Below are positions 1 to 58,140 of a stretch of 64,000 bases of DNA, in pieces. The stretch spans positions 1 through 64,000 of the forward strand of contig CAUYUJ010000016.1 in NCBI GenBank assembly GCA_963575745.1. Reading direction: 5' to 3'. Below the pieces are notes generated by a model. That model saw only the letters and a list, made by a program, of their open reading frames with translations. It was not told the DNA's origin and searched no databases. Within the stretch, counting starts at the first letter, position 1. Every line of letters starts with the position of its first letter. A program made the position numbers and the translations under genes. The stretch comes from Prorocentrum cordatum (lineage: Eukaryota).

Positions 1-499
1 CCTCCTCCCTCCTCCTCCTCCTCCTCCTCCTCCTCCTCCTCCTCCTGCTCCTGGCTGGGTACGGCACCGAGGTGCAGATTCGGGGGTGGGGGCCTGGAGG
101 TCCAGATGGAGGTCCTGGAGGTCCTCGGAGCAAGAAGTCGAGATCGGGAGAGCATCGGCTCGCGATGAATCGTGGATCTCCGAGATCCGGCGGTTCTGAG
201 GGATGCTTCTGGCGTCGCGACCTTCTCGGAGACTTCTGGAGCGCTCTGAGTTCCAGGACGCCCTGGGGCCACTCTATCCCGATCCTGGACCCGATTTATT
301 TACGCAGGTTCCTGGGACCCCCCGAAGTCCCCAGGACGTCTCCAAAGTCCCAGGAGGGCTCCAGAAGCCTCAGAGGGGGCCGGCACCAGAGGACGACGCT
401 GGCGGAAGACAGCGGACGGGAACGACGAGGCGCACGGGGACTGCGAGGCGACGGAGCCAGAGCATGACACTTGAGAGGCCCACGACGAGGACGAGGGAC

Positions 500-2200
500 A
501 GCGGTTCCCTCCTCCTCCCTCCTCCCTCCTCTCCTTTGCCTCCCTCCTCCCTCCTCCCTCCTCCCCTTCCTCCTCCTCCCTGCCTCCCTCCTCCCTCCTC
601 CCTCCTCCTCCTACTCCCCTCCTCCCTCCTCCTCCTCCTCCTCCCTCCTCCTCCTCCTCCTCCTCCTCCTGCTCCTCCTCCTGGGCGGGGTGGTCCATCG
701 AGGCCACCTCGGCGATCCGTGGGTGCTTTGGAGGTCGCTGCCGTGGGGCATGGCTCGGCTCTCCGGCGGCCGCTCGGGACCCGTGTGGACGATCTAGACC
801 ACCCCTCGGTCGCCCCCGGGGAGGGAAGGAGTTCAGGCGCGGCTGTTGGAAAAAGCGTCCCGACACGGGAAGCCCGCTGGTGGAACGTCGCCGGGAGTCG
901 AACAGTGAGGGGAGAGAAGAGGAAGAGAGAAAAAGGAGAACAGGTTGACGGGAGAGAAGAGGGAGAGGAGAAAGGAGGGAGACAGGAGGAACAGGAAAGA
1001 ACGGGAGTAGGGAGTGTGAGGAGAACAGGAGAGAGAAGGAGGACGTGTGGGAAAAGAAGGAAGGGAGGGAGAGGAGGAAGGAGGAGGAGGAGAGGCGGAG
1101 AGGAGGAGCGAGAAGAGGAGGGAGGAGGAGGGAGGAGGAGGAAGGAGGGACAGGAGAGGAGAGTAGGAGGCGTGGAGGCGGAGAGTTAGGAGGAAGGATA
1201 TAAGGAGGGAGGGAGAGGAGGATGGAGGGAAGGAGAAGTGGAGTGAGGAGGAGAGGAAGGCAGGGGAGGAGAGGAGGAAGAAGGTGGCAGGATAGGAGGA
1301 GGGGAAGGAAACGGAAGGTGGAGAGATAGCGGAGGAGAGGAGGAGGAGGAGGAGGAGGAGGGAGGAGGATAACTAACAAACGCCCTCAAAACCTCCAAAC
1401 TCGAAGCCTCCAAACCTCGAAGCCTCTCGCTAAGCCTGTTCCCCCCCCCTGACGTTACCGTTTTTAGGAGCGAGAAGCGCGTCCTTCTTCTCCTGGTCCT
1501 CCTCCGCGTGCGCGCCGGCCACGTCGTGCATCTTCTTCATGACCATCGCGGACTTCGCGACGCTCGAGACCGCCTGCGAGGCTGCGGCAGTCCTCCTCCT
1601 CCTCCTCATCCTCCTCCCTCCTCCCTCCCTCCCTCCCTCCCTCCGTCCCTCCCTCCCTCTCCTCCCTCCCTCCCTCCCTCCCTCCCCTCCCCCTCTCTCC
1701 TCTCCTCCTTTCCTCCTCCTCCCCCTCCTCCCCTCCCCCCTCCTCCCCCCTCCTCCTCCTCCTCCTCTCCTCCTCCTCCTCCTCCTCGTCATCCTCTTCC
1801 TCCATCTCTCCTCTGATCCTCCTGCTCATCCTGTTTCCTCCTGCTTCTCCTCCCTCGCCTCCTTCCTCCTCCTCCTCCTCCTCCTCCTCTCCTTCCTCCT
1901 CTACTCCTCCTCCGCCTCCCCCTCGCTCCTCCTTTGCTGCGGATCCTCTCCTCCTCCTCCTCCTCCTTGTCCCCCTCCTCTCCCCTCCTCCTCCTCCTCC
2001 TCCTCCTCCTCCTCCTCCTCCTCCTGCCAATCCTCCTGCTATTCCTCCTCTCCTCCTCCTCTCCTCCCTCCCTCCTCCTCCCCTCCTCCGCCTCCTTCCT
2101 CCTCCTCCCTTCCTCCTCCTCTCTCCTGCTCCCCGCTCCCCCTCCCTCCCCCTCCCCTCCTCCTCCTCCTCCTCCTCCTCCTCCTCCTCCTCCTCCTCCT
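500..2200. repeat. (CCT)n/(GGA)n low-complexity blocks
   Basis: Direct reading; unique islands at ~680-900 and ~1370-1590. Confidence 0.9.
1484..1573 (-). CDS. Candidate internal exon of an unidentified host gene (AVSSVAKSAMVMKKMHDVAGAHAEEDQEKK)
   Basis: CAG|G acceptor, AAG|GA donor (dinoflagellate-type), 90 bp, every codon ends in G or C, island between microsatellites. Confidence 0.45.
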
Positions 2201-2349
2201 GCTACGACGAAGAAGCCAAGACTCGAACACCATCGGACCAGGATGGGTCGCATCCCTGGTGACCATCGAGGTCTGCAAGACTCACCGAGCGTCGCGGCCA
2301 CTCCAGGGGCCTCCGGAACGCGTTCCGAGAGCGCCCCAGAACGCTCACG

Positions 2350-2710
2350 ATCTTTGTCCTGGCCCCAGCCCCGCCCGACCTCCGAGGAGGCTTGAAGTCT
2401 GAGGCTTCCAGACTCTCGGCTACCTTGGGTTTTTTACGGTTTGTGTCCTGGTCCCAGCCCCGCCAGATCTCCGCGGAGGCTCGAAGTCCGAGGCTTCCAG
2501 ACTCTCGGCGATCTTGGGTTTTTCTCGCGACTTGTGTCCTGGTCCCAGCCCGGCCCGACCTGCGAGGAGGCTCGAAGTCCGAGGCTTTCAGACTCTCGGC
2601 GATCTTGGGTTTTTCTCGCGACTTGTTTCCTGGTCCCAGCCCCGCACGACCTCCGAGGAGGCTCGAGGTCCGAGGCTTCCAGACTCTCGGCGATCTTGGG
2701 TCTTTTTTGT
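2350..2710. repeat. Tandem repeat, ~90-bp unit, 4 copies
   Basis: GTCCTGG anchor at 2356, 2445, 2536, 2627; unit contains CGAAGTCCGAGGCTTCCAGACTCTCGGCGATCTTGGG. Confidence 0.9.
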
Positions 2711-4019
2711 TTGGGAGGGGGGCCTCTGGGGGCTTCTTGGAGCATCTTGGGAGCCACATCGAGCCATCCTGGGCTGCCTTGGGCCGTCTTGGGAGGTCAT
2801 CCTGGGCTCCCCGAGGCCCTCTTGGAGCCATCTTGGGCCGCCTCGGGGCCTCGAACGGGCAGCCTCTCGGGACCTCCGAGGACCTCCGGCGACAAACCTG
2901 CCGCTCGCCGCCGCCGCCCTTCCGGCGTCCCCGCAGGCCGCTGCCGGACGCCAGAGGGGCCGTCGGGGAGTCGGAGGACGAGCGGGGTCTGGCCATCGCT
3001 CGGACGTCCATTCCCTGTGTTTTTTTCGGCTTCGTGCGTGGTTTTTTCGCCAGCTGATCAGGGATGCTCCTCGATGGTCCTCGCCGAAGGAGGAGTGCAC
3101 ACGTCCGAGCGATGCCAAGGGGGAGGGAAGACGGGCCGCGGGGGAGGGGGTCGCGGCCGCTCGGCGAGGTCTCGGCCCACGCGGCACGGCGCAGGCTGTT
3201 CGGCCCTCGGGGCCGAGCAGCTGCGCGTCGTTCACTTCTAATCGTGCTCGCTTCTGATTGTGCTCGCTTCTGGTGGTTCCTGGCCCCCTAGTGGCCAGAA
3301 GAGGCCCAGGATAGAACAATTACAGACGAAAGGATCTTGGCCTCCAAAACATCGAGGAATATTCGCATAATTAAACATGAGCAATGTGTATGCACCGTAG
3401 CATTGCTGGGTCGAGGATCGACGCCTCCAGAGACGCCCACGCGGCACGGTGAGCACAGGCTGTCCGCGGATCCCCGACCTCTCCAGATGCGTCTGGAGAT
3501 CCGCTGGCCTGCCAAGTTCATCGGGGCTTGGGACCGACTTGTGCAGACATGCAGTCGGGGCTGTTTGGAGAGGACACGCGAGAGGACACAAGACCCTTCC
3601 GAGGGCCACATTGCCATAGGAATGTAAGAAGGCATGGGTGGCGAAGCTCAGGACACAAGGGTACCCTTGATCTGGCAGGGTCGACCTACTAATCAATCTC
3701 GACTATACTTGAACTTTGAACTTTTGGCGGTTCGCGCGGATTCCTTGGACCTGCGCTGGACCCCCCTCCCTGGCGCGCTCCACGCGCCAGGGGCGGCGCT
3801 GGAGGCGCCGCCAGGACGCTCCAGCGCAGATCCTGGAGGTCCGCGCGGAGCGCCAACAATTTATGTCGGCGGCGTGCGAGGGGGAATTTCTTCTGTCTCC
3901 GGGTAAGGCTCAGGGGGACCTCCGGGCCTTCTGAGCAAGTCTTCTCCCTCTCACTTCCCCCCCTCGCTCGCCGCCGACTCTGTTTGTGCCGTTTTTTTTC
4001 TTTGACTACAGTGGAGGCC

Positions 4020-4175
4020 AATCCACAAGAAACCTCCCGCAAGAAACCCAACCCCGAGATCCCAGCACGTCCGTGGATTTTTGGTGTGGGAGCGTCGCGC
4101 CTTCCACAGCGAAACCATGGAACCCCAGGAAACCCAGGGCACCCTGAAGGCAAGCAGGGTGTTTCTTGCCATGCG
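4020..4175 (+). repeat. Dispersed ~160-bp repeat (copies also at ~4635-4790 and ~60850-61010)
   Basis: AGAAACCC..CCCGAGATCCCAG.ACGTC...GTGGGAGCGTCGCGC...AACCCAGGGCACC shared. Confidence 0.8.
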
Positions 4176-4962
4176 TCTCCACTGTACACGCAAGACTGAC
4201 CCCCGGCAGGGGTGCCCTCCGGTGCACAGCTTGCCGATGGCTGCGCGCGGTGCGGAGCAAAGGCGGGCCGCGTGCTCGGCCCTTTGCCCCCCCCCCCCGC
4301 CCGCCCGGTCGCTCCCTGAGAGCCGCGTCTTCTCGGACGCACCTCTGCTTCTCAGAAGGTGTGGGCCCTGTCTGCAGATGGAAGGCCGGCGCCTTCTCCG
4401 AGGCAGCCTGCTTCCAAGAAGCCTTCCCCCTCCCCCTGCCCCCCTCTGTGCGTGGCCGAGAAGGGTCGGCGGCGTGCCCAGGTTCGGACTTCGAGGCAAT
4501 GCTTCCCAGTTTTCGGCCTAAGGGGGCCGTTTTCGGGCCCCCCGAGAAACTCGATCCGGGGTGGAAAACCGCGTCGGATGGACCCTGGGAGGGGTCCCAG
4601 GATCGGTTTTGATCGGTACAGAGGGAGCTCGACCACAAGGAACCTTCCAGAAGAAACCCAACCCTGAGATCCCAGGACGTCCATTGATTTCTGGTGTGGG
4701 AACGTCACGCTTTTCATAGCAAAGCCATCGAAACCCAAGGAACCCAGGGCACCGAGGAGGCACACACAAAGTTGCTTGGCATGGGTGTCCACTATGGAGG
4801 GGGCGGGTCTCCTCAGGATGCCGCTGGGAACGTCTCAGAAGGCCGGATGGGCTTCTCAGAAGCCCTGCCGCCTTTTGAAAGGGTCTGCCCCCCCCCCCCC
4901 CCTCCCTTGCCCCCCCCTCCTCAGCGCGCCGCCGAAAGGGGCATTTCTACGTGCAGCCGAGC

Positions 4963-5118
4963 AAAATTCTGGAGGTCGGGAAGGGGTGTGGCGTACTGTA
5001 GAGGGGTGTGGTGCCAATCGTGGACATGGCGACGCTACCAACGGTAGATAACCTCGCCAAATCCAGCATCGGCACCACACCCCTCTACACCACACCCTTT
5101 TCCTACCTCCAGAAAATC
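4963..5118. repeat. Imperfect inverted-repeat element
   Basis: TTCTGGAGGT...TGTAGAGGGGTGTGGTGCC mirrored by GGCACCACACCCCTCTACA...ACCTCCAGAA. Confidence 0.55.
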
Positions 5119-5309
5119 TGGCACGTCTTCGACCGTTCCCGCCCGGCGCACTCCAACGGAAGCTCGAGAAGGCTGAGACGAGGATGATGTCAAGATGCGA
5201 TAAGCTCAAGGCATGTTCCAAGCATCCTGGAATATTCGGCGAGCCTTTTTTTTGGAGCCTGGGCGGGGCAATCGGGAATTTCGCAGCAAATGCTGCGATT
5301 GTTGGAATG

Positions 5310-6132
<823 letters not shown>

Positions 6133-7299
6133 GTCACAACTTTCGCGGCGCGCAGAGGGGGGCAGGAGGAGGGGGGAAGGCTTCTTAGAAGGACGCTGCT
6201 TCTTAGAAGGCGTGGGCCTTACATCTACAGACAAGGCCCGCGCCTTCTGAGAAGCATGACTGCTTCTGAGAAGCCCTTCCCCCCCCCTTACCCCCCCTTT
6301 CTGCGCGTGGCCGATGACTGCTCGCTCCCCTCAGAGCTGAAGCTGGGAGCCCCTCTGCCCTCGGAGACGGCATCCTCGGAGACGACGGCGGCGGAGGAGA
6401 GGAAGCCCACAGCAGGCAAACGGCGCCGAGCCGCACACGGGGGCCGCTCCCGCGTGCGGCGGCCCTGGGGAGCGGAAGGGGGACGCGCACCAAAGGCCAG
6501 GCAGGGGGCGCGAGCCGGCCAGGCGCGGCCCCGCCTGCACCTTGACGCTGGTCGCGCGGATGCTGTCGCGCCTGATGGGCGCCCGCGCGGCTCTGTCTTC
6601 CCCGTTGCTCCCCAAAGTGCTCTCGTGAGAGTCCAGCCCTCGGTCTGAAGCAGCCGCGCGCGCGCCTCCTCCCTCTCCTCCCGCTGCCCCTGCTCCAGCT
6701 CCCGTGCCGTTCGAGCCAGCCCTCCTCTGGGGCTGCGTGCCTCGGAGGTGCTGGCGGGCCGGTGCCCCACGCGGGGGGTGCAGGCAGCCGCTGCGATGCT
6801 CTTCGAGTCTGCGGCCGAAGTTGCCCACTCCCAGAGCCACAGGCGACCAGGCCCAGCGAGCTGACTCATGTGACTCCATGGGCTCGTCTCGTCTCCTGCC
6901 CCTGCTCTCCGCATGCCCGCTCTGGCACGCCCCTCGCACGTTCCGCGAGGAGGGGGAGGAGGAGGATGGGGCAGGAGGATGGGGCATGAGAAGGAGGAGG
7001 AGGAGGAGGAGGAGGAGGAGGAGGAGGAGGAGGAGATGGAGGAGGAGAAGGAGGAAGACCAGAAAAGGAACTCTCCACCTGCGGCCCCGGTGGGCGCGAC
7101 CGCGCGGCGCACGCACCCCTCGCACGCGCGGCCGCGGGGCATGCGCGCCCCCGAGCTCGGCGCACCCCTCGCGCGCCTCGTGGCCCCCGCGAGAAGCGCC
7201 GCCCGCGGCCCCGGCGCGCGGCCGCGGGGCGGACGCGCCGGAAAGTCGGCACGCCCAGCTCTTCGCGTGACAGTCGCGCCGTCGCGGGTGCGAATGTCG

Positions 7300-7477
7300 G
7301 CGTCCGTAGGGGGCCTCGTGCGAGCCCTATCCCTGCCCCCCCCCCCACGATTTCTGAGGGGGGGAGGGTGGGGGTTCACTTCGCTCGGGCGCTCCCGAGC
7401 GAAGTGAACCCCACCCTCCCCCTCAGAAATCGTGGGGGGGGTAGGGGTAGGGTTCGCACGAGGCCCCCTACGGACGC
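7300..7477. repeat. Near-perfect 178-bp palindrome (foldback); second copy at ~38200-38420
   Basis: Centre TTCACTTCGCTCGGG-CGCT-CCCGAGCGAAGTGAA; outer arms GCGTCCGTAGGGGGCCTCGTGCGA / TCGCACGAGGCCCCCTACGGACGC. Confidence 0.88.
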
Positions 7478-8369
7478 GCCCGAAAGTCTGCCCGAAAGTC
7501 GGGCGGACGCGCCCGAAAGTCGCGCGCGTCGTGGCCTCATCTCTGGGCGACCCAGAAAGGGGGTCCCACTGCAACGGGGGGTGGTGCAACAACTTTGGGG
7601 CAATTGTGTTGCGAGTGTACTGCGATGGAGAATGGTATTGCATTGTGCTGCAACGAATGTATTGCACGCGAACATCCAGCGGTACATTTGCGCCCCGGAA
7701 ATGTAATGCACGCCCAGACTGTATTGCAACCCCACAAATCACTTGCACCACATCTATTGCACCACCCCCTCGTCGCTGGACACCCTTTTGGGTCAACCCG
7801 ATCATCGGGGAGTTCCACCCACGGTCTGCCCGACCGCATGGCGCACCCGCCCCCCCAACTCGGCACACCCCTCGCGCATCTCGTGGCACCATAGGCAGCT
7901 TCACCTGCGGCCTCAGCGTGCACCCAGGGATCTGAACGGGACGCGTGGTCTGCCACGTGTTGCGCCTTGAGAAGCTTCTGGCCGTGCTTCGGCAACGGAC
8001 TGGCCACGCACAATTCCAACATATACCAACAAAACGTGACAATGATTCCACGTTTTCTGGACATGCGTCCAACGAACTAATTGGCTTCTGGACATGATTC
8101 CACGTTTCAAGAAGTACAGTACCACCAGAACATGACAGACCTCCCTGCACAACTGCCGACGGAATTCCCCGTCCCGTCGTGCGCATGTCGGGTCGGAGCC
8201 ATATAAGCTAGAGCCCGTGGGCTGTGGAAACTTCGGCCAAAACAACCGTAAACTCGCATTCCGGGAGATCACGAACCGTCAGACAAAGATGCAAAAACGC
8301 ACAACGAACAACGCTCGTGCCGTCTGGCTCGGGAACTTCCGGGTTACCGCAGGCAGCGACGCACAGTCA

Positions 8370-8462
8370 ACGATGGTGATGATGGTGATGGTGGTAATGA
8401 TGATGACGATGATGATGCTGATGCTGCTGATGCTGATGCTGATGACGACGATGCTGATGCTG

Positions 8463-8493
<31 letters not shown>

Positions 8494-8494
8494 A

Positions 8495-8562
<68 letters not shown>

Positions 8563-8861
8563 CGACAACGACGACGATGACAACGACGGCGACAATGATG
8601 GTGATGACGATTATGATGATGCTGATGCTGATGATGATGATGATGATAATGGTGAGGATGCTGCTGCTGATGATGCACAAGATGAGTAGTTATGATTACA
8701 TCATGATGATGCTGATGATGCTGCTGATGATGGTGGGTGATGCTGGTGAACATGATGCTGATGCTGTTGATGATAATGATCATGCAGCTGATGATGTTGC
8801 GGATGATGCTCCAGCTGATGATGATGATTCTGATGATGGTGATGGGGATGATGATGCTGCT

Positions 8862-8906
<45 letters not shown>

Positions 8907-8915
8907 GAGGATGAT
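8370..8915. repeat. (GAT)n/(GCT)n microsatellite
   Basis: Direct reading. Confidence 0.95.
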
Positions 8916-9803
8916 GGTAAGGAACGTGCTCCACATACTGGCTCCTGATGACTGGGAAGCGGGAAAGCAGGAGCGTGAAGATGAGGAGACGGAGCGGGAG
9001 ATGGCAACGCAGACCAAGGAGGTGAGCAGAGGGAACAAAAACGGGCATGCAGGATCAATCAGCAGGGGCACGGAATCGAACTCGAATGGGATCGGTCGCG
9101 CCAAGATGCACAGCAACGCCGTGCAAACACCTTGTCGCATCGCATCGCCCAGAAACTGGGAGCGAATTGGATCGGGCCTGGCGGAATGGATATTCACTCG
9201 GATCGAGCGGATCGAAGCGAACCCTGCCATGAGTGCAAGGGTCCAGGCAGAGCCTTCGTTGCCTCAACCTCCCGCGCCTCAAGCGGGATGTGCGAAGGCG
9301 CGCTGTAGACCCCGTCGGCAGGCGTAGCTGTGACCTCGTCGGCCAGGCCTTCACAGGCCTCGCGCAGCTTGGGGTCCATGGCTTCTCTGCGTCTGCTCCG
9401 CTGCCCGGTCCTGCTCTTCGACCTCTTGCTGTCCGCCCGCGGCTGACGAGCGGGCCGAGGCCTGGCAGTTGGGCGGGCTTGAGGGGAGCAAGCGACTGAT
9501 GCCGCCAATCGTCATGGCCGCTCGAGACGTCCAGCACCAACCCAACGTGGGCCTTCCAAGGGACGAGCGCCCCCGCTTCTAGGCGTTGTTCTGCTCGAGA
9601 CCCTTTTCGCAGAAGGCATGGTTGGTGAACGAAGCGCTCTTGGTTTTGGCGCAAGTGGCTGACATGTCGGGCGCGACCGCCACTCCATTGACGAGGCTGA
9701 GGTATCGGAGGAGGAGGTGGAGGAGGAGGAGCAGGAGGAGGGGGGGGGGGAAGGGGGAGGAGGAGGAGGAGGAGGAGGAGGAGGAGGAGGAGGAGAAGGA
9801 GGG

Positions 9804-9825
9804 ACCGTAGCCATTTTGGCTCAAG
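9804..9825 (+). other. Genomic copy of the dinoflagellate spliced leader (DinoSL)
   Basis: ACCGTAGCCATTTTGGCTCAAG, 22/22 match to DCCGTAGCCATTTTGGCTCAAG; followed by AC, not the GT donor of an SL RNA gene. Confidence 0.97.
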
Positions 9826-10020
9826 ACTTAAACGCTGTGAAGGGCTATAGACGCCCGAGAACCAGCGATTAGGTCTTGGCCCGTCCGTAGCAGGGCCCAA
9901 GGTTTTGGAGCACAGCGCTCCTCGGCAACACGACCGCTCTGGCCAAGATCCTGGTCAGGTTCACCACTTTCCTCTTTGTTTCTGCTCCCGCTGCGGAGCT
10001 CCAGTCAGCAGGTTCCGTTG

Positions 10021-11457
10021 ATGGCGCCATGGACGTGCGCATGGCAGTGCAGATGCGGGCAGCAGAACTGGAATTCGTCGGTGAACTGCGTCAAGTGCAA
10101 CGGTCATTGGAAGTCTTCCAAGAAAGAGAGCGGCACCAGCAACCCCAAGGGCCGCCAGCGATCCAAAAGCCAGAAGAGCCAGAGATCAGCATCAGAGTCG
10201 CGCCCATGGGAAGACGACCTGAAGTCCAACGGAGCCCCGTTCGTTCGCATGGCGACCCCTGCAGAAACACAGGCTCATCCAGATTACCGACCCCTGAGCT
10301 CGCGCGCCACCGAGTCGGAGAAGAAGGAGTACTACCGCGAGACGCGCTCCAGGCTGAACCTGCTCCAGCAGCGGTACAACCTCGCGTGGGCCATGAGGGA
10401 GCCAGTGCAGGAACTCGCCACTTCCATTTCCATACTGAGAAGAATGTTGATCTCCGAGAAGAGCTTGCACCAGCAAAGTGCTTGGGCGGAGACTACGTTA
10501 GCCAGGATGATGCTGCGCGTGGAAGCAGCAAACAAAGAAGTCATTTCGCTCAAGGACCAGCTCCAAGCGAAGGTCAACATCAGAGACAACTTGCAGGACC
10601 AGCTGGATGCTCTGAAGCGTACCAAGAAGGAGATCCACCAGCTCATGGAGGAGGAGAAGCGCCAGAAGGAACTGGAGGCCAGCGAGGACATGGACGAGGA
10701 CAAGCCGAGCCAGGGCGTTGTGGTCTTCCTCGAGCGCACCTTGGAGGAGATCCCAGCAGGTCAGCCGGCCCCTGCTTCGCCAGTGATTCCGACTCCAGTC
10801 GCGCTCTCCTCCTCAGCATCGACACCGGCGGCGTCCACAGCAGGTACTGCACCATCGAGTGCCAGCATACAGCATGCGGTCCAGCAGCAGGTCGAGGCAC
10901 AGCTGAAGCCCATGGCGGACCAGATGCTGCAGATGCAGCAGATGATGGAGGCCATGATGATGAGAGACGTGGTGCGCGCGGCAGCGCCAGCGGCAGCGGT
11001 AGCAGGCCACATCTCTGTGCCAGCTTCACCAGCGCCGTCACCACCGACTGCAGCTCCCAGTTCACCACCATCGTTGACGCCGACGCAGCCGTGGACGCCG
11101 ATACCGAGGGTGGAGTCCACAGCGCAGGACATGACCGCGGGACGGACTTCGGTGAGGGAGCGGGCTGCGGCTTTCGAGAGCGGCTCCGAGGGCCAGTTCT
11201 CGCTCGGGCCGCGCCAGCGTGGCAGCCAGAGGACGTCAGCATCGCGGAGTCCAAGCGTTCGCACCCAGAGGGCGAGAGCGCCAGGATCTTCAAGGCGTCC
11301 CGCCAACGACAAGGGCAAGTCGAGGGCGGCGATGGCAGCATTCCGCAAGCCGCTGAGACGGACAGATGTCGAGGCGGTCGCTCAGGCAGCGGAGGACCAC
11401 CGAGTGCCGAGCAGCGACGCTGCCCAGATCGACACCTACGCGGAGGCCGAGTACTGA
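10021..11457 (+). CDS. LINE ORF1 protein (RanBP2-like zinc finger, coiled coil, P/S/A-rich tail), 478 aa from ATG
   Basis: Open ORF; WQCRCGQQNWNSSVNCVKC resembles W-x-C-x(2,4)-C-x3-N-x6-C-x2-C with shortened first spacing; E/K/Q/L heptad-rich middle; lies between the SL and ORF2. Confidence 0.8.
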   Translation: MAPWTCAWQCRCGQQNWNSSVNCVKCNGHWKSSKKESGTSNPKGRQRSKSQKSQRSASESRPWEDDLKSNGAPFVRMATPAETQAHPDYRPLSSRATESEKKEYYRETRSRLNLLQQRYNLAWAMREPVQELATSISILRRMLISEKSLHQQSAWAETTLARMMLRVEAANKEVISLKDQLQAKVNIRDNLQDQLDALKRTKKEIHQLMEEEKRQKELEASEDMDEDKPSQGVVVFLERTLEEIPAGQPAPASPVIPTPVALSSSASTPAASTAGTAPSSASIQHAVQQQVEAQLKPMADQMLQMQQMMEAMMMRDVVRAAAPAAAVAGHISVPASPAPSPPTAAPSSPPSLTPTQPWTPIPRVESTAQDMTAGRTSVRERAAAFESGSEGQFSLGPRQRGSQRTSASRSPSVRTQRARAPGSSRRPANDKGKSRAAMAAFRKPLRRTDVEAVAQAAEDHRVPSSDAAQIDTYAEAEY

Positions 11458-11949
11458 GCCTACACGGCCATGATGAGGTGTCGGATGGGGAGATGCTGAC
11501 ACCCACCAACATGCATGTAGACTCTAGCGAGAATACACCGCCACCCCAACGCTGTAGTGTTGAATTCGATAGGACCAAGTCCAAGGTGGCATTCGCCACG
11601 ACTGTGCCTTCTCACTTCTATGATCCCTCCTCTTCCTCCTCCTCTTTTCCCGGTGGTGGGTTGGGCAGTTCGGAGGCGCGGACCCTGGGACTCTGGGGGG
11701 TTCGGAGGTTGGAAGTCTCGTGGGCCCTCAGGTCCTTGACCTTGACAGTCGGATCCCGATCGAGGTCGCGATCGTGGGTGATGATCCTGCCGACTCGATC
11801 AGTTGTAAGTTGGGGCAGATAGGTTTGCTCACGCGCCTCCAACAAGAGGGATGCGAGATAGACCTTGAGTTAGATTTCAACAAAGAGGGCTTGCATGCCC
11901 ACGCGCAGCTTGGCTTGGACATGTGCCCGACTAGCGAGCACGTTGCCGG

Positions 11950-12395
11950 CCAGATTTCAATCTTCGTCGACGGGTCCTTCGACGAAACGAACCCTAGCAC
12001 AGCGGCCTGGGCGATGGCCGTGGTGGCCAAGGACAGAGCAGGAGCCTTTTCTTTTCTGGGGGCTGGGACAGGGAAGGTTATCGCATCCGTTGGCATTTCT
12101 TTAGATACCACTCGTTTTAGCAGCACTACGCCAGAGATGGGGGGTGTCCTCTGGGCCCTGCTTTGGATCGGACTTCTTGGGCAGCATGAGGCTGATGGTT
12201 TTGTCATTGAGTCTGACTCCGCTTCTGCGATTCAGATTGCTGAAGGCTCTGCTCCATCTACTGCCCATCCTGAGTTTGGTACCTTGTTGCGACACTTGGT
12301 CGTGGACCTGCGAGCGAGGTATGACCTCACGTTCCGCCACGTCCCGTCCCACAATGCCCATCCATGGAACGAGTTAGTCGATGGCCTCTCTAAGC
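11950..12395 (+). pseudogene. ORF2 N-terminal RNase H domain
   Basis: IFVDGS...TTPEMGGVLWAL...IESDSASAI...FRHVPSHNAHPWNELVDGLSK gives the D-E-D-H-D RNase HI pattern; a frameshift follows near 12390. Confidence 0.88.
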
Positions 12396-12644
12396 GTAGG
12401 CGAACGGACTCCGAATCTCGCGACCCCCGACTGGGCGATGCTCTTGACCCCTGCGGTAGGAGACGCCTGGTCATGGGTTGCTGAGCTGGAAGCCGATCGC
12501 ATCGCGTATCCTGAGATCACCGAGCACGGTGGACAGGCCAGTTTCATTACGCCCGTGCGCACATACGCGACGGGACACCCTCACCACTACTTACCCCTTG
12601 GACAAGAAGGTGGTCTTGAGCCCCCTAAAGAAATGGCTGGTGAT

Positions 12645-13445
12645 CTCACTCTTAATGTTGCGACCTACAATGCGATGTCCATGCTTGAGAATACCAAAAG
12701 GCAGCAGCGGAGACACAATGCTAAATTGGCCAGAAAACAGTTTCACGAACAGGGCATTCAGGTCCTTGGGATCCAAGAAGCGCGGACACCTGAAGGGACC
12801 AGGTCCGCTGATGGCTACTATATCCTTGCCTCTGGAGGCGACGGGAAAAACTTCGGTGTGGAAGCCTGTTTTTCGCTGACCATTCCGTATATGAGACACC
12901 AAGGTCACCCAAGGTACTTTCAAAAAAAACATTTTCTTGTCACGCATAGATATATCCGCAGGATTGTAGTGCAAGTCCGCGCGCCAGGACTTCATTTCAC
13001 TTTCATGGTCCTGCACGCTCCCTATCAGGACGCGCAGAGCAGGACCATCGATGCTGGTGCACTTCAGAGGTGGTGGGAGGAGACTACCGCGATAGCCCAG
13101 CGTATGTCGGTCGACGTCGTGTCTGTCGATGCTAACGCGCGTGTTGGTAGCATTTCGTCCGTCGCTGTCGGGGTCGGAGGATGGGCGGAGGAAGAAAATG
13201 TTTCGGGAACCTGCTTTCACCAGTGCATGTGCGAGTTAGGTCTTGTCGCCCCCTCCACTTTCTCTGATCCCAGCTGGAGCAGGGATACAGAGCCCAGCAG
13301 TTTCACCTTTGTGAAGAATGGCGCCCACCACAGGATCGATTACGTTCTTGTGAAGCCCCACTTCGTGCCGGCCATCGCTTTCGAGCAAGTCTGGAGTGAT
13401 CTCGATGATCTGATGGAGGTCAGTGATCACTTCCCTGTTGTGCTG
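12645..13445 (+). pseudogene. ORF2 apurinic-like (APE/EEP) endonuclease domain
   Basis: VATYNA, LGIQEAR, LHAP, VDANARVG, RIDYVLV and SDHFPV motifs in canonical order. Confidence 0.92.
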
Positions 13446-14364
13446 GGAATGGCGTGGGTAATCCTCGACAGCCCAGAGCCTAGTAACCGAAGCGAGGTCA
13501 GCAGGCCTAGATACAATCGTAAGTTGACCAGCGACCAGCACAGAGTTGCGATCTTCAAATCATTCTTGTCTACCATCCCCTTGATGCCATGGTCGACTGA
13601 TATCAATAAACAGTATAGTCAAGTTCAGGAGCGGATTCTTTGGGCGGCGGCTGCCGCTTTCCCTGTCCAGGTAGTCTACCCGCGGAAGCCTTACACTGAT
13701 CAGTTGACACTCTACTTCGTCAATTGGAGGCGAAAGAACAAGGCCGTCCTTCGCACTGCCCCTGACAAGGGAGCCCAAGCTATGTACAACTGGGCCAACA
13801 CTCTTGTTCAGCCTTGTCCTGCCCCCGTTTTCGAGGGTGGGGAAGAGGCCCGTAGCCTCTTCATCTCCTTCGAGGCCTGTCTGTGAGAGCTTAAGCTGTC
13901 TGCCTTGGCTTTCTTGGAACTCTTGGACCTCGATTCTTGGGGCGGGGCGTTCCGAAGCCTCCTCTCCGCCACGGCTGGACTGCTCAAAAAGAATTTGGAC
14001 ATCGACAAGACTGACACCCTGGAAAGGATGGTCAGTGATATGAGTGATGCCATCGAGGATGGCAATGCTAAAAAAGAATGGCAGGTTGCTCGGTCCCTTC
14101 AAGCTTTCGGAGGTCGTCGGACGAAACTCCAGGGTGGTGCCCTTCCCATTCGTAACGGGCCCGACGGATGTCCCCTTAAGACGAAGACCGAGGTGGCCGA
14201 TTCGGTTCAGGCCTACTTTGCTGGCATAGAAGGCGGGGCCCTGTACACCGAAAGCGATCTTTGTGCCAAGTATAGCGAAGATAATCGTGACCGCCCCCCC
14301 CTCCTTGAGTGCCCTGCTGAAAATCTGATGACTTGGGATCAACTTCGTTTTTCGTTCTCGCAGG

Positions 14365-15490
14365 CCACCCCAGGCAAGGCAGGGGGACCCGATGACGTTG
14401 TTGAAGATCTTTTACGATGCGCTCCCGCTGAGACTGCCCGACTGGTCCGCCCGGTCATCTTGAAGGCGGGCGTGCGCACTCAGGAGCCACTTGCTTTCAA
14501 GGGAGGGTGGGCCCACGACTTGTATAAGAACAGCGGCAATGCGGCGACGCACGAGAGCTATCGCCAAATACTTCTGATGAACAATGTTGCCAAACACCAT
14601 CACAAATTTGTGAGACATCAGTTTAAAACGTTAATTGCGGGGCTTATGATCGAGACTCAGATGGGTGGGGCCCAGGGAAAAGGGACCGACATGGCGACCC
14701 ATCTGGTTCGTACTTTCTCGGCTGTGTCCTGTGCCAAGGGCCTCTCCACGGTGTTAGCCTTCATCGATCTGAAATCGGCCTTCTACAAGGTCATTCGCCC
14801 CATAGTTATGCCCTTTCTTTTGGACCCCCAGGACATGGCTGACGCTATCGATGCCGCCGATATCCCAGCGGCCCTGGTGCCGATCTTGGAGCACGCCATT
14901 GCGCAACCCTCTGTTTTGGGAGACCTCGACAATGTTCACTTGTTAAGAATGCTGGCGGACCTTCACACTAGCACTTGGTTCAAAACCAAGGGGTCCCGAT
15001 GAGTTATTCGAACCGCCACATGCAGCCGCCCTGGTAGCTCGCCTGCGGACCTCGTTTTCAACCTCCTCTTCGTGCCTATCGTGCGCGAAATTCGAGAGGA
15101 GCTCAGCAGTGCCAACTACCTGCTTGAGCTCGAAGGCCAGCAGGACCCACTTTTTCTCTGCCCCAGGACGCTGAGACTGACTGTCTCGCGGACAGCACCT
15201 TTGTTGATGACCTCTGCGTCATGGCCGTGGTTCAGTGTGCTGCCGACCTCCCCCAGGCGATGTCTGACGTGGTCGTCGCCATCAGCAGCGCCACGGCCAA
15301 GCGAGGCATGACTATTACTTTCAAACAAGGTAAGTCTGCGCTCCTTGTTCACCCTCGAGGTGCGGGGGCCCGCACGGTCAGAGCCGATCTCTTTCCTGTT
15401 GCTGATCCTGTCCATGTCACCCACTATGATGATGAGATATTTCTCCGGCGATCATACAAGTACCTAGGTGCCATGTTAGCCCAAAGTGGA
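14365..15490 (+). pseudogene. ORF2 non-LTR reverse transcriptase domain
   Basis: KAGGPD, YRQILL, QMGG, FIDLKSAFYKV, SRPGSSPADLVF, FVDD (15200-15211), YKYLG; in-frame TGA at 15000-15002 and frameshift near 15160. Confidence 0.93.
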
Positions 15491-16179
15491 AGCCTCGCTC
15501 CCGAGTTGGCCCATAGAAGGACCCAGCAGAAGACGGGGCTCGGACCTTTGCGTAGGACGATTCTCAAGGCCAAAAGGCTCCCCACCAAGACTCGGACCAA
15601 GTATGTTGACGCCCTCTGTACTTCGAGACTGCTTCATAATGCCCATGTTTGGGGAGAGTTGTCTAAGGAGCAGCAGAATGCGATGATTGCCGCCCACCTG
15701 GCTCCTTTCAAGTCCATCTTGGGGATTCGGCTCGGACGCCCCGACCAGCCGCATGTTGCCAACGAGCAAGTTTTGCTCGATGTCGACAGGCTCGCTGTTC
15801 CCGACGTCCTGCGTCTCATGCGGCTTCGGTACTTGGCCAGGCTGATGACTTCGGCCCCGCCCCAGCTGCGGCAGCTCCTCGATATGGAAGGCCGCTGTAA
15901 GAAGTCTTGGGGCGCTCTTGTTCGGGAGGATCTGGCCTGGCTGCAGAAATTCTATGATTTTGAAGCAGATCACACGCTCTCAGCTCGCGAGCTTTTGTTG
16001 CAGGCGTCTGCCGACCCAGCCCGTTGGAAAAGAATCTGCAGGACTGCGGCACGAAATTTTAAAACATGACAAGCAGATCAGTACCGGCAGCAGTTGTGGA
16101 GAAATGAGTTGCGCAACACATGTAAGGCTCACGCCATTCCGCCGCCTGATACTGCTCCGCTCCCTGAGCCGATCACGAA

Positions 16180-16350
16180 GCACGTCTGTGATACGTGCCA
16201 ATATGTGTGCTTCCATGAAGGAGCCATGCGATCCCACATCGCCAAGAAGCATGACGACCCTGCGGGCAGAATCGCCGAGACGGGTCTGTGCCTGGCTTGC
16301 GGGGTTGACTTTGCCACGCGTCCCCGTCTCCTCAAGCACCTTCGGCATGC
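16180..16350 (+). pseudogene. Two C2H2-type zinc fingers in ORF2
   Basis: CDTC-x12-H-x4-H (HVCDTCQYVCFHEGAMRSHIAKKH) and CLAC-x12-H-x2-H (CLACGVDFATRPRLLKHLRH). Confidence 0.8.
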
Positions 16351-16644
16351 TCGTGCTGGTTGTCTCGAGCTCTGGAGTCGTACCATGGCTCCCGTCCCCG
16401 ACGCGAGATGCGAGGAATTGCGTGAAGATGATCGCACTTTGGTGGCCTCCCTGAAGGCCAAGGGTATGCGCGCCACCGAGGCTGACATCCCCGCTCGCCC
16501 CGAGGACCCAGGAGATGCCCTCCTTTCTGCCCTGGATGGTCTCGGTCCTCCTCTGCTCCGCCCTGCTTTTACCCCCGTTGTTTGGTTCCCCGAGGCCGAA
16601 GGGTATGTCCCTCCGAGCCCCCGTATGCTTCAGCCTAGCGAAAC

Positions 16645-17576
16645 TAGATACATTCTCCATCTCTTTAGTAGACAGAGACGGAGAGAAGACTTTCAGCACT
16701 GTGTAGAGTTGTTTCAGATTCTTGAGGCTCCCACTGGGCCTCTTGCCGTTGTCTCGATAGACATCGTCAACAATGATGTCGATGGCGATCTCAGGTCTCA
16801 CAGTGCCCGCAATAAACTTGCTTCACTTGTTTTCCAAGGTCTCGCCATTGGTGTTCTTGTAGGACCCCCGTGCGAGACCTGGTCGTCGGCTCGATTTCTA
16901 GAGGCCCCCCAAGGCCAGCGTTCTCGTCCGCTTCGGTCTATACAGTTCGAGTGGGGTCGACCTCTAGCCACTCCCAGAGTGGGCTCAGATTTCTACAGCG
17001 AATGATCTGTATCGTGCCGCATTGTATTCCATGTACGTTTGTCTTGCATTGGATGCTTGCGGTATGCTCGAGAACCCTGCTTGCCCGTTGAATCAGGTTG
17101 CTCCCTCGAGTTGGTTCCTGAAGGAAACCAGCCACATGCGGACCTTGTCTTCGATGGGTTTTAATGTTGACACGATCTGGATAGACCAGTGTATGCTTGG
17201 TTCGCAGTCGACGAAACCAACGATGTTCCTGACAGTGAATCTTCCCTCCGTGCGCAGAGAAGTCCACGTGATGCCGAACCGAAGACGCTGCAACCATGGA
17301 GGCCACGCGATTCTGGAAGGAGTCGATAACTTAGGCCGCTGGAAGACCCAGGCAGCCAAGCAGTATCCTCCCGAGCTGTGCATGTTTCTTGCCCGACATT
17401 TTGTCGCGTTCGCTTGTCAGGAGCTCAGAGAGAGGGGTGAGGTCCATCCGCGGAGCAGTGTTGACCTGACCCGTCACCCCCCTCTCGATCCTTCTTTGGC
17501 GTGCTTCTTTTGCCCGCTCGACCCGTACTGTGAGGCCCAGCAGGTCGGTGCCTACAATCAAGATTTCCATTTGTAA
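16645..17576 (+). pseudogene. C-terminal C5 cytosine DNA methyltransferase-like domain of ORF2
   Basis: Motif I-like ILHLFS[R] (expected FSG), VSID, catalytic GPPCETWS (Cys codon 16871-16873), LENP (17070), DQCMLG..KPT, motif X-like AAKQYPPELC; frameshift near 16980-17020. Confidence 0.82.
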
Positions 17577-17646
17577 GCTCGCCATTCCCGAATTCACGTG
17601 CTGGCAGCGGATCTTCGTCCCCTAATGCCGTCGAACAGAACAGACC

Positions 17647-17833
17647 AGGAGAAGGAGGAGGAGGAGGAGAGGCGGAGGAACGAGGAACAAGGAGGAGGAG
17701 GAGTGAGGAGGAGAAGGAGGATGATGAGGAGGAAAGGAGGAGGAGGACGAGGAGGAGGAGGAGGAGGAGGGGGAGGAGGGGGATGAGGAGGGGAGGAGGA
17801 GGAGGAGGGGAGGAGGAGGAGGAGGAGGAGGAG

Positions 17834-17868
<35 letters not shown>

Positions 17869-17963
17869 GAGGAAGAGGAGGAAGCGGAGGAGGAGGAGGA
17901 GGAGGAGGAGAAAGGAGGAGGAGGAGGAGGAGGAGGAGGAGGAGGAGGAGGAGGAGGAGGGGA

Positions 17964-18017
<54 letters not shown>

Positions 18018-18120
18018 CTGATGATTATGATGCTGATGATGATGGTGATAATGATGATGGTGATGACGATGATGATGGTGATGATGATGATGCTGATGAT
18101 GATGGTGATGATGAGGAGGA
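17647..18120. repeat. (GAG)n then (GAT)n microsatellite
   Basis: Direct reading. Confidence 0.95.
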
Positions 18121-28264: not shown

Positions 28265-30055
<1,791 letters not shown>

Positions 30056-32247: not shown

Positions 32248-32370
32248 ATGTGTGTATGTATGTATGTATGCATGCATGTATGTATGTATGTATGTATGTA
32301 TGCATGTATGCATGTATGTATGCATGTATGTATGCATGTATGTATGTATGTATGTATGTATGTATGTATG

Positions 32371-32410
<40 letters not shown>

Positions 32411-32659
32411 TGTACGTACGTACGTACGTACGTACGTATGCATGTATGTATGTATGTATGTATGTATGTACGTATGTATGTATGTATGTATGTATGTATG
32501 TATGTATGTATGTATGTATGTTTGCATACATGTATATATGTATGTATGTATGCATGCATGAATGCATAACTGTATGTATGTATGTATGTATGTACGTACG
32601 TACGTATGTATGTATGTATGTATGTATGTATGTATGTATGTATGTATATATATGTATGT
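32248..32659. repeat. (ATGT)n microsatellite, target site of the SL-capped short element
   Basis: Direct reading. Confidence 0.95.
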
Positions 32660-32686
32660 CACTCGTACACCATGGGTCTGTTCATC

Positions 32687-34168
32687 TTAGCGGGGTCGGA
32701 GCACGGCAGCAGCCAGCTCAGAAGTCGTAGAAGAGGAAGCCGTCGAAGACGACAAAGAAGATGTCGAGCCTCCCTGGCCGCATGGGTTCTCGCATGTCCT
32801 CGGCTCCTCCGCCGAATCTGCGACCAGGAAGGCTGGTTTAATCAGCTTGCAGCCGTCGATACCTAAGAACTCCACCTGAACCCTCTCTCCGACGAAGCCA
32901 CGGACGCAGCCCACCAGCCCATTCAGAGCCGACGTAGCGAGGCTGTGCGGGCGCACCAAGTCACCCACCTGGAAATGGTCGCCCTGGCACTCGGGAAGGG
33001 ACACGGGGCCATCGCCCTTGACCCGGTCACTCCAGGGAACTTGAGGCGCCACATTCCCAAATTTGGTCTCAAGAGCCTGGACCTTCCTCTCCAGTGTGTC
33101 TAGAATCTTCGCAGAAGCGGCACTCACAGCAGACAGACATTGGTCGCCCAGAGATCGCTGATGAGTCGTGAAACTGTCGCACAGCTCCTGCTTCAGAGTG
33201 TCCAAAGGAGACTGCAAAGATAGGCTGGCAGCGTCCAGAATGTGTGACTTCATTTCCTCGAGCTTAGGCGGCAGCCGACGGCTGAGCGAAGCCTCGACCG
33301 CTCTGGCGAGTTCAGCTTGCAGCTGGGTGACCTGCGCCGACACTGCAGCAGTTTTGTCATCCACGTAGGCCTGCAGCACCGAAAAAGAGATATTAGGAAG
33401 GGCCACCGTCCTCAGCTGCTCCAGCTCCTGGATCAACAAAGCAATCGTGTTGTTCTGAGCGTCGATCAGCTGTTGCACAGAAGAGTCCCCAGTAATGAGA
33501 TGGGAGTGCCCCCTGCCCGCCGAACTGCCGCAGGGGCCTGGGCCAGGCTCAGCCAAAACACGACAAGGGCGTGCAAACTTATAACGAGGAGCCACAATCT
33601 TGCCACAATCACCAGTACAAGACAAAAACGAATTGTTGCCATTAGCGTTGCAAGCATCCTGAGGGACGAATTCAGTGACCAAAGGGTTGAATTTGGATAC
33701 CGCTGGTGGCAAACCCTGCCCACAAGAAAGGGCGTCGAATATGCTAATAATGCAGGGCCCAGGCCCCGAGCGCTCAGAAGATGGTACGTCCACCACCGAC
33801 TTACCATACCCACCTCTCTGCCGCCTGCGGCGCCGGCAAAACGATGGGAAAAAGCAGAACCACTGTGAATGTTTCGCGGCACCAGCAGCCGAGTTGACCA
33901 TCATAGCCAGGCGAAAGATGGGAGCAGGAATAAGACCATGAAGAAACATAATCGCAGCACATGTTGAAGTAAACTCCCGTCCAGCAGCCGCCACCGCACA
34001 CGAATGAATCGTAAGTTGCAAACCAATGATTAAAAGACGATATGGGATCGAAGAGAAGCCAGCCGCGATGCAGAGGCAGAAGGATAGCGCCACATCAGCA
34101 GCCCACAGGCAGCATCGCGGGGACACGAGGGGGACCATGCCGAGCAAAGATGAATTGCGCAGCGACAT
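32687..34168 (-). CDS. 493-aa intronless ORF1-like protein (hydrophobic N-terminus, PAM2-like motif, coiled coil, C-terminal SH3/KOW-like segment)
   Basis: ATG 14 nt after the SL; uninterrupted frame; SKFNPLVTEFVP; QQLIDAQNNTIALLIQELEQL...; FQVGDLVRPHSL..ALNGLVGCV...RVQVEF...KLIKPAFL. Confidence 0.7.
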   Translation of the reverse strand: MSLRNSSLLGMVPLVSPRCCLWAADVALSFCLCIAAGFSSIPYRLLIIGLQLTIHSCAVAAAGREFTSTCAAIMFLHGLIPAPIFRLAMMVNSAAGAAKHSQWFCFFPSFCRRRRRQRGGYGKSVVDVPSSERSGPGPCIISIFDALSCGQGLPPAVSKFNPLVTEFVPQDACNANGNNSFLSCTGDCGKIVAPRYKFARPCRVLAEPGPGPCGSSAGRGHSHLITGDSSVQQLIDAQNNTIALLIQELEQLRTVALPNISFSVLQAYVDDKTAAVSAQVTQLQAELARAVEASLSRRLPPKLEEMKSHILDAASLSLQSPLDTLKQELCDSFTTHQRSLGDQCLSAVSAASAKILDTLERKVQALETKFGNVAPQVPWSDRVKGDGPVSLPECQGDHFQVGDLVRPHSLATSALNGLVGCVRGFVGERVQVEFLGIDGCKLIKPAFLVADSAEEPRTCENPCGQGGSTSSLSSSTASSSTTSELAAAVLRPR

Positions 34169-34182
34169 CTTGGCAAGCCTGG

Positions 34183-34204
34183 CTTGAGCCAAAATGGCTA
34201 CGGA
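34183..34204 (-). other. Genomic DinoSL copy
   Basis: Reverse complement reads TCCGTAGCCATTTTGGCTCAAG (22/22). Confidence 0.97.
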
Positions 34205-46145: not shown

Positions 46146-46167
46146 CTTGAGCCACAATGGCTACGGA
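46146..46167 (-). other. Genomic DinoSL copy (1 mismatch)
   Basis: Reverse complement TCCGTAGCCATTGTGGCTCAAG (21/22). Confidence 0.93.

Positions 46168-52739: not shown

Positions 52740-58140
<5,401 letters not shown>

Follow-up and report, generated by a model that had tools for sequence, protein, structure and literature searches.

A spliced-leader-tagged, inactive LINE copy from Prorocentrum cordatum and its dinoflagellate family, with a predicted C5-methyltransferase-like fold at the C-terminus of ORF2

The DNA considered here is a 64,000-nucleotide, GC-rich stretch of the Prorocentrum cordatum genome (assembly GCA_963575745.1, contig CAUYUJ010000016.1, positions 1 to 64,000; the window), which contains one copy of a non-long terminal repeat (non-LTR) retrotransposon at 9804-17646 on the plus strand. 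With a probability of roughly 0.6, this element is an inactive retrocopy of a long interspersed nuclear element (LINE) of the apurinic/apyrimidinic endonuclease (APE) type, made from a spliced-leader (SL) mRNA template, and its family is one in which the second open reading frame (ORF2) ends in a domain (the C-domain) with a C5-cytosine methyltransferase (C5-MTase)-like fold, for which cytosine methylation is the leading candidate activity. The value of this dead copy is the family that it reveals, whose members bring together an RNase H-like domain, APE, reverse transcriptase (RT), zinc fingers, a cryptic domain of predicted methyltransferase fold, and an SL tag.

The C-domain, about 300 residues long, occupies 16640-17567 on the plus strand as delimited by family alignments and fold models, and is broken in the window copy by a frameshift (frameshift 3, below). 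Its relatives are numerous. A HMMER scan with the 202-residue C-terminal half of the domain returned 648 representative proteins at E ≤ 1e-3, 103 of them at E ≤ 1e-10, with the match in long proteins located at their C-terminus; a word-indexed protein search with a piece comprising the zinc fingers and the N-terminal half gave 2 matches. Among named family members, those of Cladocopium goreaui and Cladocopium sp. Y103 are more distant from the window copy than a gene model of Prorocentrum cordatum (P0001, below). A metagenome scan produced 486 pattern matches, of which 455 proved to be relatives; 80 loci were retained. The LINE family is widespread in core dinoflagellates, large, and old. Its C-domains share the motifs FSGxRRxGD, SxD, GD, GPPCETWSxAR, EHP, DQC..G...KPT, GRCxH..H, and K.YP..LC. 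Conservation was measured on 58 domain-only translations out of 66 that are free of stops (8 were dropped), and 25 columns are invariant among these 58 DNA-derived domains, including the G, R, R, and D of F-S-G-x-R-R-x-G-D as well as S-x-D, G-P-P-C-E..S..R, E-H, Q, K-x-T, and Y. The string GPPCE is invariant both in a set of 27 sequences (27/27) and in the larger set (58/58). Codon comparisons show the C-domain to be under strong purifying selection. Nei-Gojobori dN/dS ratios were computed for all pairs of the 66 domains and filtered for 50-98% amino acid identity, dS above 0.05, and absence of saturation; all 30 usable pairs, which are phylogenetically non-independent and many of which have high dS, fall below 0.25 (median 0.09), with values of 0.03-0.11 in the five least saturated pairs.

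What kind of protein has been conserved in this way is suggested by predicted structures. Models were obtained for the relative P0021 with alignment A1 (pLDDT 82.7, pTM 0.80) and for the domain from metagenome locus L022 with alignment A5 (pLDDT 86.6, pTM 0.84). In unbiased PDB-wide scans with these two independent models, the top 17 and the top 16 chains are all C5-MTases. Likewise, Foldseek searches of the PDB gave C5-MTases alone among the matches listed, the best 50 for each model, with best E-values of 1.6e-4 and 2.8e-4 and TM-scores of only 0.27-0.41. The nearest annotated cluster in an Atlas search was PF00145 (score 0.87), which serves as a lead only. An earlier note on this DNA had made its proposal of a cytosine methyltransferase depend on such a fold for the C-terminal region, and the predicted fold is indeed best matched by enzymes of this class.

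Placing the family motifs on the models and alignment puts most of them at the positions of C5-MTase motifs. F-S-G-x-R-R-x-G-D falls in the loop after strand 1, at the position of motif I; S-x-D stands at the end of strand 2 (motif II) and G-D in the loop following it (motif III); GPPCE occupies the loop after the next strand (motif IV); Q...K-P-T lies on a hairpin (motif VIII) and K.YP..LC on the C-terminal helix (motif X). The equivalence of E-H-P, at the end of a strand that follows a long helix, to motif VI comes from the fold models alone. The family has in common with C5-MTases the Pro-Cys of motif IV, with its catalytic-type cysteine invariant. The C-domain is thus predicted by these models to have a C5-MTase-like fold and to retain residues for covalent catalysis at a pyrimidine. 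Of the motifs that the earlier note had picked out by eye, LHLFS and GPPC are conserved in the family, while its “ENP” turns out to be a mutated form of the invariant EHP, with N at the position of the invariant H; its suspicion that motif I is altered in the window copy was well founded, as R is found there at the family's invariant G.

Sequence methods do not place the C-domain in the C5-methyltransferase family, and the results that follow weigh against a methyltransferase reading. PF00145 scored only E 0.13 on the relative P0002 (12.1 bits against a cut-off of 22) and was found in just 3 of 38 family members, with a best E-value of 0.11. Searched against PDB sequences, profile A1 recovered motif IV of M.HaeIII alone, at E 2.2, and profile A5 nothing at E ≤ 10. 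Comparison by hhalign with Dcm and phage DNA methyltransferase (DNMT) profiles gave probabilities of 0.3-3.5%, over the stretch of motifs III-IV only. The higher value belongs to profile A3, for which a search with E. coli Dcm had supplied only close orthologues at least 74% identical; profile A4, which adds five phage DNMTs to A3 and leaves out a sixth phage locus, L088, where the gene is cut, gave 0.3% and 0.7%. Only the GPPCE region can be aligned to M.HaeIII and Dcm. Scanning the 80 loci and the window, as six-frame ORF pieces of at least 60 residues, with a DNMT HMM detected 0 C-domains of the LINE; as a positive control, the HMM found one canonical DNMT ORF (locus L035, 33-1607 on the minus strand), which PF00145 scores at 24.2 bits, above its cut-off. 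This ORF lies about 8 kb upstream of a LINE of the present family on the same contig and on the opposite strand to it.

The departures from the C5-MTase pattern are as consistent within the family as the resemblances. There is no significant sequence-profile match to DNMT3A/B, M.HhaI, M.HaeIII, DNMT1, or Dnmt2. Motif I reads F/Y-S-G-x-R-R-x-G-D rather than F-x-G-x-G-G, so that G-x-R-R stands in place of G-x-G-G, and all 58 sequences keep the G, R, R, and D; motif VI has E-H-P instead of E-N-V; and at motif VIII an invariant Q is followed by C/G..G....K-P-T without the R-x-R of the canonical Q-x-R-x-R. Membership in the C5-MTase family by sequence, as the earlier note had it, finds no support in any profile test, and the canonical forms of motifs I and VIII are absent. 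Only a short stretch precedes the C-terminal helix at the place of the target-recognition domain. Within it, D-Q-C and G-R-C-x-H..H contribute one Cys each; the two occur together in 19 of 27 sequences, are both missing in 7, and in 1 the second occurs alone; such co-varying Cys and His residues between motif VIII and the C-terminal helix suggest a small zinc site where target recognition would otherwise reside. Finally, the ratio of observed to expected CpG hardly differs between the element (0.846) and the remainder of the window (0.842), a weak test on a single old copy, which lends no support to the idea that the element methylates its own copies.

These observations could be accommodated if the C-domain were a Rossmann-like protein that is not a methyltransferase, its likeness to DNMTs reflecting distant ancestry or convergence. 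Such a protein might bind nucleic acid or flip bases, or might be a cysteine enzyme that carries out covalent attachment, deamination, or a C5 modification that does not use S-adenosylmethionine (SAM). The replacement of the canonical glycine loop by the invariant G-x-R-R-x-x-D, the lack of a profile-level match to PF00145 or to DNMT sequences of the PDB, the Z margin of C5-MTases over Rossmann folds of short-chain dehydrogenases/reductases (SDRs), which is only about 2, and the undepleted CpG of the window copy all favor it. Against it stand the exclusive occupation of the top ranks by C5-MTases with both models, the invariant GPPC-E..S..R where motif IV is expected and the invariant E-H-P where motif VI is, and the conserved acidic residues at the positions of motifs II and III (S-x-D and G-D), in the right order and with the right spacing. 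On balance this alternative is unlikely, yet it deserves to be taken seriously. A further possibility, that the C-domain is an active RNA methyltransferase in the manner of Dnmt2, acting on the element's own transcript or on the RNA strand of the hybrid, shares the predicted fold and has been suggested for the ORF1-encoded DNMT of SymbioLINE-Dnmt, a dinoflagellate LINE compared below; it is considered rather improbable.

The second part of the interpretation, that the copy was made from an SL mRNA with cytosine methylation left aside, is written in the ends of the element. The exact 22-nucleotide dinoflagellate spliced leader (DinoSL), ACCGTAGCCATTTTGGCTCAAG, stands at 9804-9825 on the plus strand, where the window holds a single copy of it, and agrees with the DinoSL consensus quoted in PMC5585692. 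Immediately outside, Tandem Repeats Finder (TRF) identifies a (GGA)n microsatellite at 9707-9802 (period 3, 31.7 copies) and, on the 3' side, an (AGG)n microsatellite at 17647-17960, so that the element is bounded by one interrupted microsatellite adjoining each end; both the SL and the microsatellite target had been recognized in the earlier note. A 12-mer, AGGAGAAGGAGG, lies at 9791-9802 on the plus strand as candidate left target-site duplication (TSD) and is matched exactly by the first 12 bases of the 3' flank, from 17647, as candidate right TSD. Because this 12-mer occurs 13 times on the plus strand of the window, the target being a microsatellite, a TSD is compatible with the data and not demonstrable. 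The SL continues into a 5' untranslated region (UTR) at 9826-10020 (+), which reaches to the ATG of ORF1 (residue 1 of the relative P0001 maps to 10021), and a 3' UTR at 17577-17646 (+) ends without a poly(A) tail, none being present in the sequence at the 3' end of the element. Self-comparison of the 64-kb window revealed no second copy of the LINE. A complete SL at the 5' end, without the intron of an SL gene, and a microsatellite that resumes at the 3' end establish that a mature, trans-spliced mRNA served as the template and was copied all the way to its 5' end.

Among relatives the SL is harder to find. Of the 80 related loci, only one has it upstream on the same strand, a point against generalizing from the window copy, with many of these loci ending short of the 5' end of the element and others falling in a branch that resembles Symbiodiniaceae and has far longer 5' parts. 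When 2 mismatches were permitted across the 80 loci, the only additions were a match inside the element in L053, attributable to chance, and matches on the minus strand in L039 and L048. The one positive locus, L013, is nearly intact (77-10003): a truncated relic SL (AGCCATTTTGGCTCAAG) followed directly by a full SL (TCCGTAGCCATTTTGGCTCAAG) occupies 75-120, the ATG of an 884-codon ORF1 lies 62 bases after the full SL, and two overlapping frames, 2473-5871 and 4967-10003, carry the RNase H-like domain, APE, RT, zinc fingers, and C-domain in that order, the change of frame falling inside APE. A 9-mer shared between the 80 bases before the SL of this locus and its 3' flank was discounted as a TSD, with about 0.3 chance matches expected by our own estimate. 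In the retrogene model set out in PMC5585692, a relic SL in tandem with a full one is the signature of repeated trans-splicing and retroposition. The SL is thus shown for two family members, not for the whole family.

SL sequence may also be acquired in other ways. Elements of the SLACS/CRE type in trypanosomatids insert beside or into SL genes, and an insertion of that kind, or a chance adjacency, would place an SL beside a LINE whose mRNA had never been trans-spliced. The scarcity of same-strand SLs in the related loci would fit such an origin. The complete 22-nucleotide SL, however, adjoins (GGA)n on one side and continues into the 5' UTR on the other with no sequence of an SL intron, the microsatellite continues beyond the 3' end of the element, L013 bears the relic-plus-full signature, and the window contains a second SL-tagged retrocopy, unrelated to the LINE; taken together these leave an origin other than the trans-spliced LINE mRNA very improbable.

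This second SL-tagged retrocopy, at 32660-34203 on the minus strand, has a full DinoSL (TCCGTAGCCATTTTGGCTCAAG) at 34182-34203 and an ATG 14 bases downstream of it. A (TATGTG)n repeat at 34211-34252 adjoins its 5' side and (ATGT)n at 32248-32659 lies about 1.5 kb downstream, so that with microsatellites on either side this retrocopy, too, sits inside a microsatellite, as does the LINE. The 749-residue stop-to-stop frame that runs across it matches no Pfam family. Elsewhere, a 16-mer at 46146-46161 on the minus strand equals the 3' part of DinoSL with one mismatch and may be a further relic SL.

The domains upstream of the C-domain follow one another as the earlier note had described them: an N-terminal RNase H, an APE-RT core, and two fingers. 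The RNase H-like domain (11951-12397, +) lies at the N-terminus of ORF2 in frame 2, followed by APE (12465-13757, +) and by RT (14037-15955, +), which contains the FVDD motif near 15170 and holds the second of the in-frame stops and the second of the frameshifts. Zinc finger 1 (16187-16252, +) is evident in the translation as a C2H2 finger of the form C-x2-C-x12-H-x4-H, with weak matches to ZFAT and zf-met, and zinc finger 2 (16289-16363, +) is likewise read from the translation as C2H2/C2HC-like, with the family consensus C..C....H...R...HL.....C. When the broken pieces of ORF2 were compared with Pfam, the matches were there, all of them below the cut-off: RNase_H at E 0.002, Exo_endo_phos at E 0.0017, and RVT_1 at E 0.0017.

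More can be learned from the relatives. Profile A2, built from 13 of them together with the window pieces, was searched against PDB sequences and found as its best match human LINE-1 ORF2p (8uw3, 8sxt; E 1.9e-23 over about 620 residues), beginning at residue 95 of the chain, inside the region N-terminal to RT. The same profile matched R2 proteins at E 2.8e-17, the C2H2 fingers of CTCF and SALL4 at E 2.6e-6, and, with its N-terminal end, E. coli RNase HI at E 4e-4. Of 16 long relatives, 9 score E ≤ 0.001 with RVT_1, and 4 of these exceed Pfam's own cut-off; Exo_endo_phos matches P0099 at E 4.2e-5; and RNase_H matches L055 at E 2.2e-4. APE is further supported by phmmer and tblastn matches to relatives. 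The matches of the family profile and of RVT_1 in relatives establish the succession of RNase H-like domain, APE, RT, and fingers as real. Among these four upstream domains, the RNase H-like one is the least securely identified; candidates for its D/E/D/D residues, picked by eye from the translation, are FVDGS, PEMGG, ESDS, and ELVDG. By its type of RT, and with APE N-terminal to it, the element is an APE-type non-LTR retrotransposon, or LINE.

The same architecture, now including the C-domain, recurs across the family. Mapped by phmmer with six window pieces, six long proteins (P0027, P0061, P0076, P0099, P0117, and P0130) carry the full series from the RNase H-like domain to the C-domain, and four further fetched proteins carry APE, RT, the fingers, and the C-domain. 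Architectures were counted in those 53 of 80 metagenome loci whose sequence extends 5 kb or more upstream of the C-domain, where RT was found upstream on the same strand in 51, APE in 49, and the RNase H-like domain in 13. The earlier note had considered that other copies might lack the methyltransferase-like region, which would make it a separate insertion beside an ordinary LINE; this is refuted, since RT and the C-domain share one uninterrupted frame in 40 of the 53 loci, the six long proteins are colinear, and the stop codon of ORF2 follows directly after the domain.

Some members of the family are far larger than the window copy. In 13 loci the ORF, longer than 3,500 codons, is still open at the edge of the locus; frames of that size running from the DNA edge to the end of the C-domain were noted in L055, L036, L058, L075, L072, L066, L080, L057, L061, and L060. 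In 6 of 6 such relatives tested, the 1,700-2,000 residues upstream of RNase H/APE match no Pfam family, save for RNase_H in L055.

The window copy itself is much decayed. ORF1 (10021-11457, +) remains open, with 478 codons plus a stop and 64% identity to P0001. Its N-terminus shows, by eye, a Cys4 zinc-ribbon-like motif (MAPWTCAWQCRCG...CVKC), after which comes a coiled-coil-like, low-complexity region. Pfam offers no credible family for ORF1, Selenoprotein_S alone appearing, below its cut-off, at E 0.0025, and detects no DNMT in it. ORF2 starts near 11684 in frame 2 and ends at its natural TAA stop codon (17574-17576, +). In between, on the plus strand, tblastn places a first frameshift, from frame 2 to frame 0, at about 12426-12451 (from the boundaries of the P0001 high-scoring segment pairs), a second, from frame 0 to frame 2, at about 15107-15137, and a third, from frame 2 to frame 0, at about 16972-16978 (with P0004 and P0069), and the ORF list gives in-frame stops at 13884-13886 (also evident by tblastn), 15000-15002 (through which the P0027 segment pair continues in frame 0), and 16067-16069. 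The total of 3 stops and 3 frameshifts agrees with the 3 stops and about 3-4 frameshifts of the earlier count. P0069, a fragment 82% identical to the window copy, is uninterrupted across frameshift 3 and reads EHP. Together with the two substitutions at invariant positions of the C-domain, these lesions mean that the window copy is dead, and the self-contained functional unit envisaged at first is not to be sought in it.

The closest named protein relative, P0001, is a chimeric gene model of Prorocentrum cordatum, 84% identical over the covered part of the query and 57-91% identical across tblastn segments. It fuses pieces of a LINE copy (ORF1, RNase H-like domain, APE, RT, and finger) to an ion-transport domain (PF00520, E 7e-19). 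P0001 is probably an annotation chimera, spliced around the defects of the element.

Away from the LINE and the second retrocopy, long microsatellites of the types (GAT)n, (ATGATG)n, (TG)n, and (TGTC)n are found among 8372-8916, 17964-18114, 28294-28721, and 29842-30029. A 5-kb stretch of low GC content (0.34-0.41) at 53000-58000 has an extreme GC skew of +0.5 to +0.73.

Comparison with known systems illustrates how the present family differs from each of them. An L1-type ORF2p likewise has APE and then RT in one protein, but the present family adds the N-terminal RNase H-like domain, the two C2H2-type fingers, and the domain of predicted DNMT fold, and the present element lacks a poly(A) tail and owes its 5' end to SL trans-splicing. 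Closer in kind is SymbioLINE-Dnmt, which according to de Mendoza et al. 2018 (PMC5890265) encodes a PF00145-positive DNMT in ORF1, upstream of an ORF2 with APE and RT, and has TSDs, conserved UTRs, no poly(A), CpG reduced relative to the genome, and Ka/Ks below 0.2 in the majority of DNMT comparisons. Both are dinoflagellate LINEs with APE and RT in ORF2, without poly(A), and with a module of cytosine-methyltransferase type that is under purifying selection. The earlier note had equated the two, which does not hold: in the present family the domain of predicted DNMT fold is the C-terminus of ORF2 and is missed by PF00145, neither ORF1 of the window copy nor the upstream 1,700-2,000 residues of 6 of 6 giant relatives contain PF00145, and the window copy shows no CpG depletion. 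The main text of PMC5890265 contains 0 mentions of a spliced leader, and the full texts searched, supplements aside, hold no description of a C-terminal DNMT-like domain in ORF2 of a dinoflagellate LINE.

A third comparison is with retroposed host genes. DinoSL-tagged retrogenes were reportedly described by Slamovits and Keeling in 2008. According to Song et al. 2017 (PMC5585692), intronless copies bear a DinoSL, full or relic, at their 5' end, tandem relics mark rounds of retroposition, and the AG within the SL is able to serve again as acceptor. The window copy resembles these retrogenes in being intronless and in starting with an exact SL. Here, however, the retroposed mRNA encodes the retrotransposition machinery, so that the tag reports on the life cycle of the LINE itself and not on that of a passenger gene.

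A life cycle for intact members of the family can be proposed in outline. APE would nick a microsatellite target, target-primed reverse transcription would copy the RNA with its SL included, and RNase H would remove the RNA template, while the fingers and the C-domain would act on nucleic acid. From the fold models, the C-domain is most likely a catalytic pyrimidine-C5 enzyme with Cys as its nucleophile, and the leading candidate for its activity would be SAM-dependent cytosine methylation of the new cDNA or of the insertion site. A copy that bears the SL and is transcribed by read-through could be trans-spliced again; since the DNA keeps the SL with its terminal AG, such a copy would be open to re-splicing, and an internal promoter would not be needed.

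To our knowledge, retrotransposons that carry DNA methyltransferases are rare, and the only LINE case in print has its DNMT in ORF1. The present family adds a second and architecturally distinct solution, in which a domain of predicted methyltransferase fold is fused to the C-terminus of the RT protein. As Pfam is blind to a large, old, and strongly selected family of this kind, published counts of dinoflagellate transposon-borne DNMT-like genes are probably too low. Moreover, the family offers intact natural sequences with which to test biochemically what a transposon gains from a DNMT. The SL tag is direct evidence that mRNAs of LINEs undergo trans-splicing; this would explain how elements manage with no internal promoter, and it links LINEs to the mass retroposition of host genes. 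The most far-reaching version of these ideas is tentative and, as a whole, on the unlikely side: that the family is a major LINE lineage of Prorocentrales and Symbiodiniaceae with a cryptic, catalytically competent enzyme of C5-MTase fold, missed by PF00145 surveys, and that it propagates through SL mRNA and re-splicing with no promoter of its own. Dinoflagellate DNA carries unusual, genome-wide base modification. If the C-domain marks new cDNA, by methylation or by some other C5 modification, LINE activity could be a main writer of that modification in dinoflagellates.

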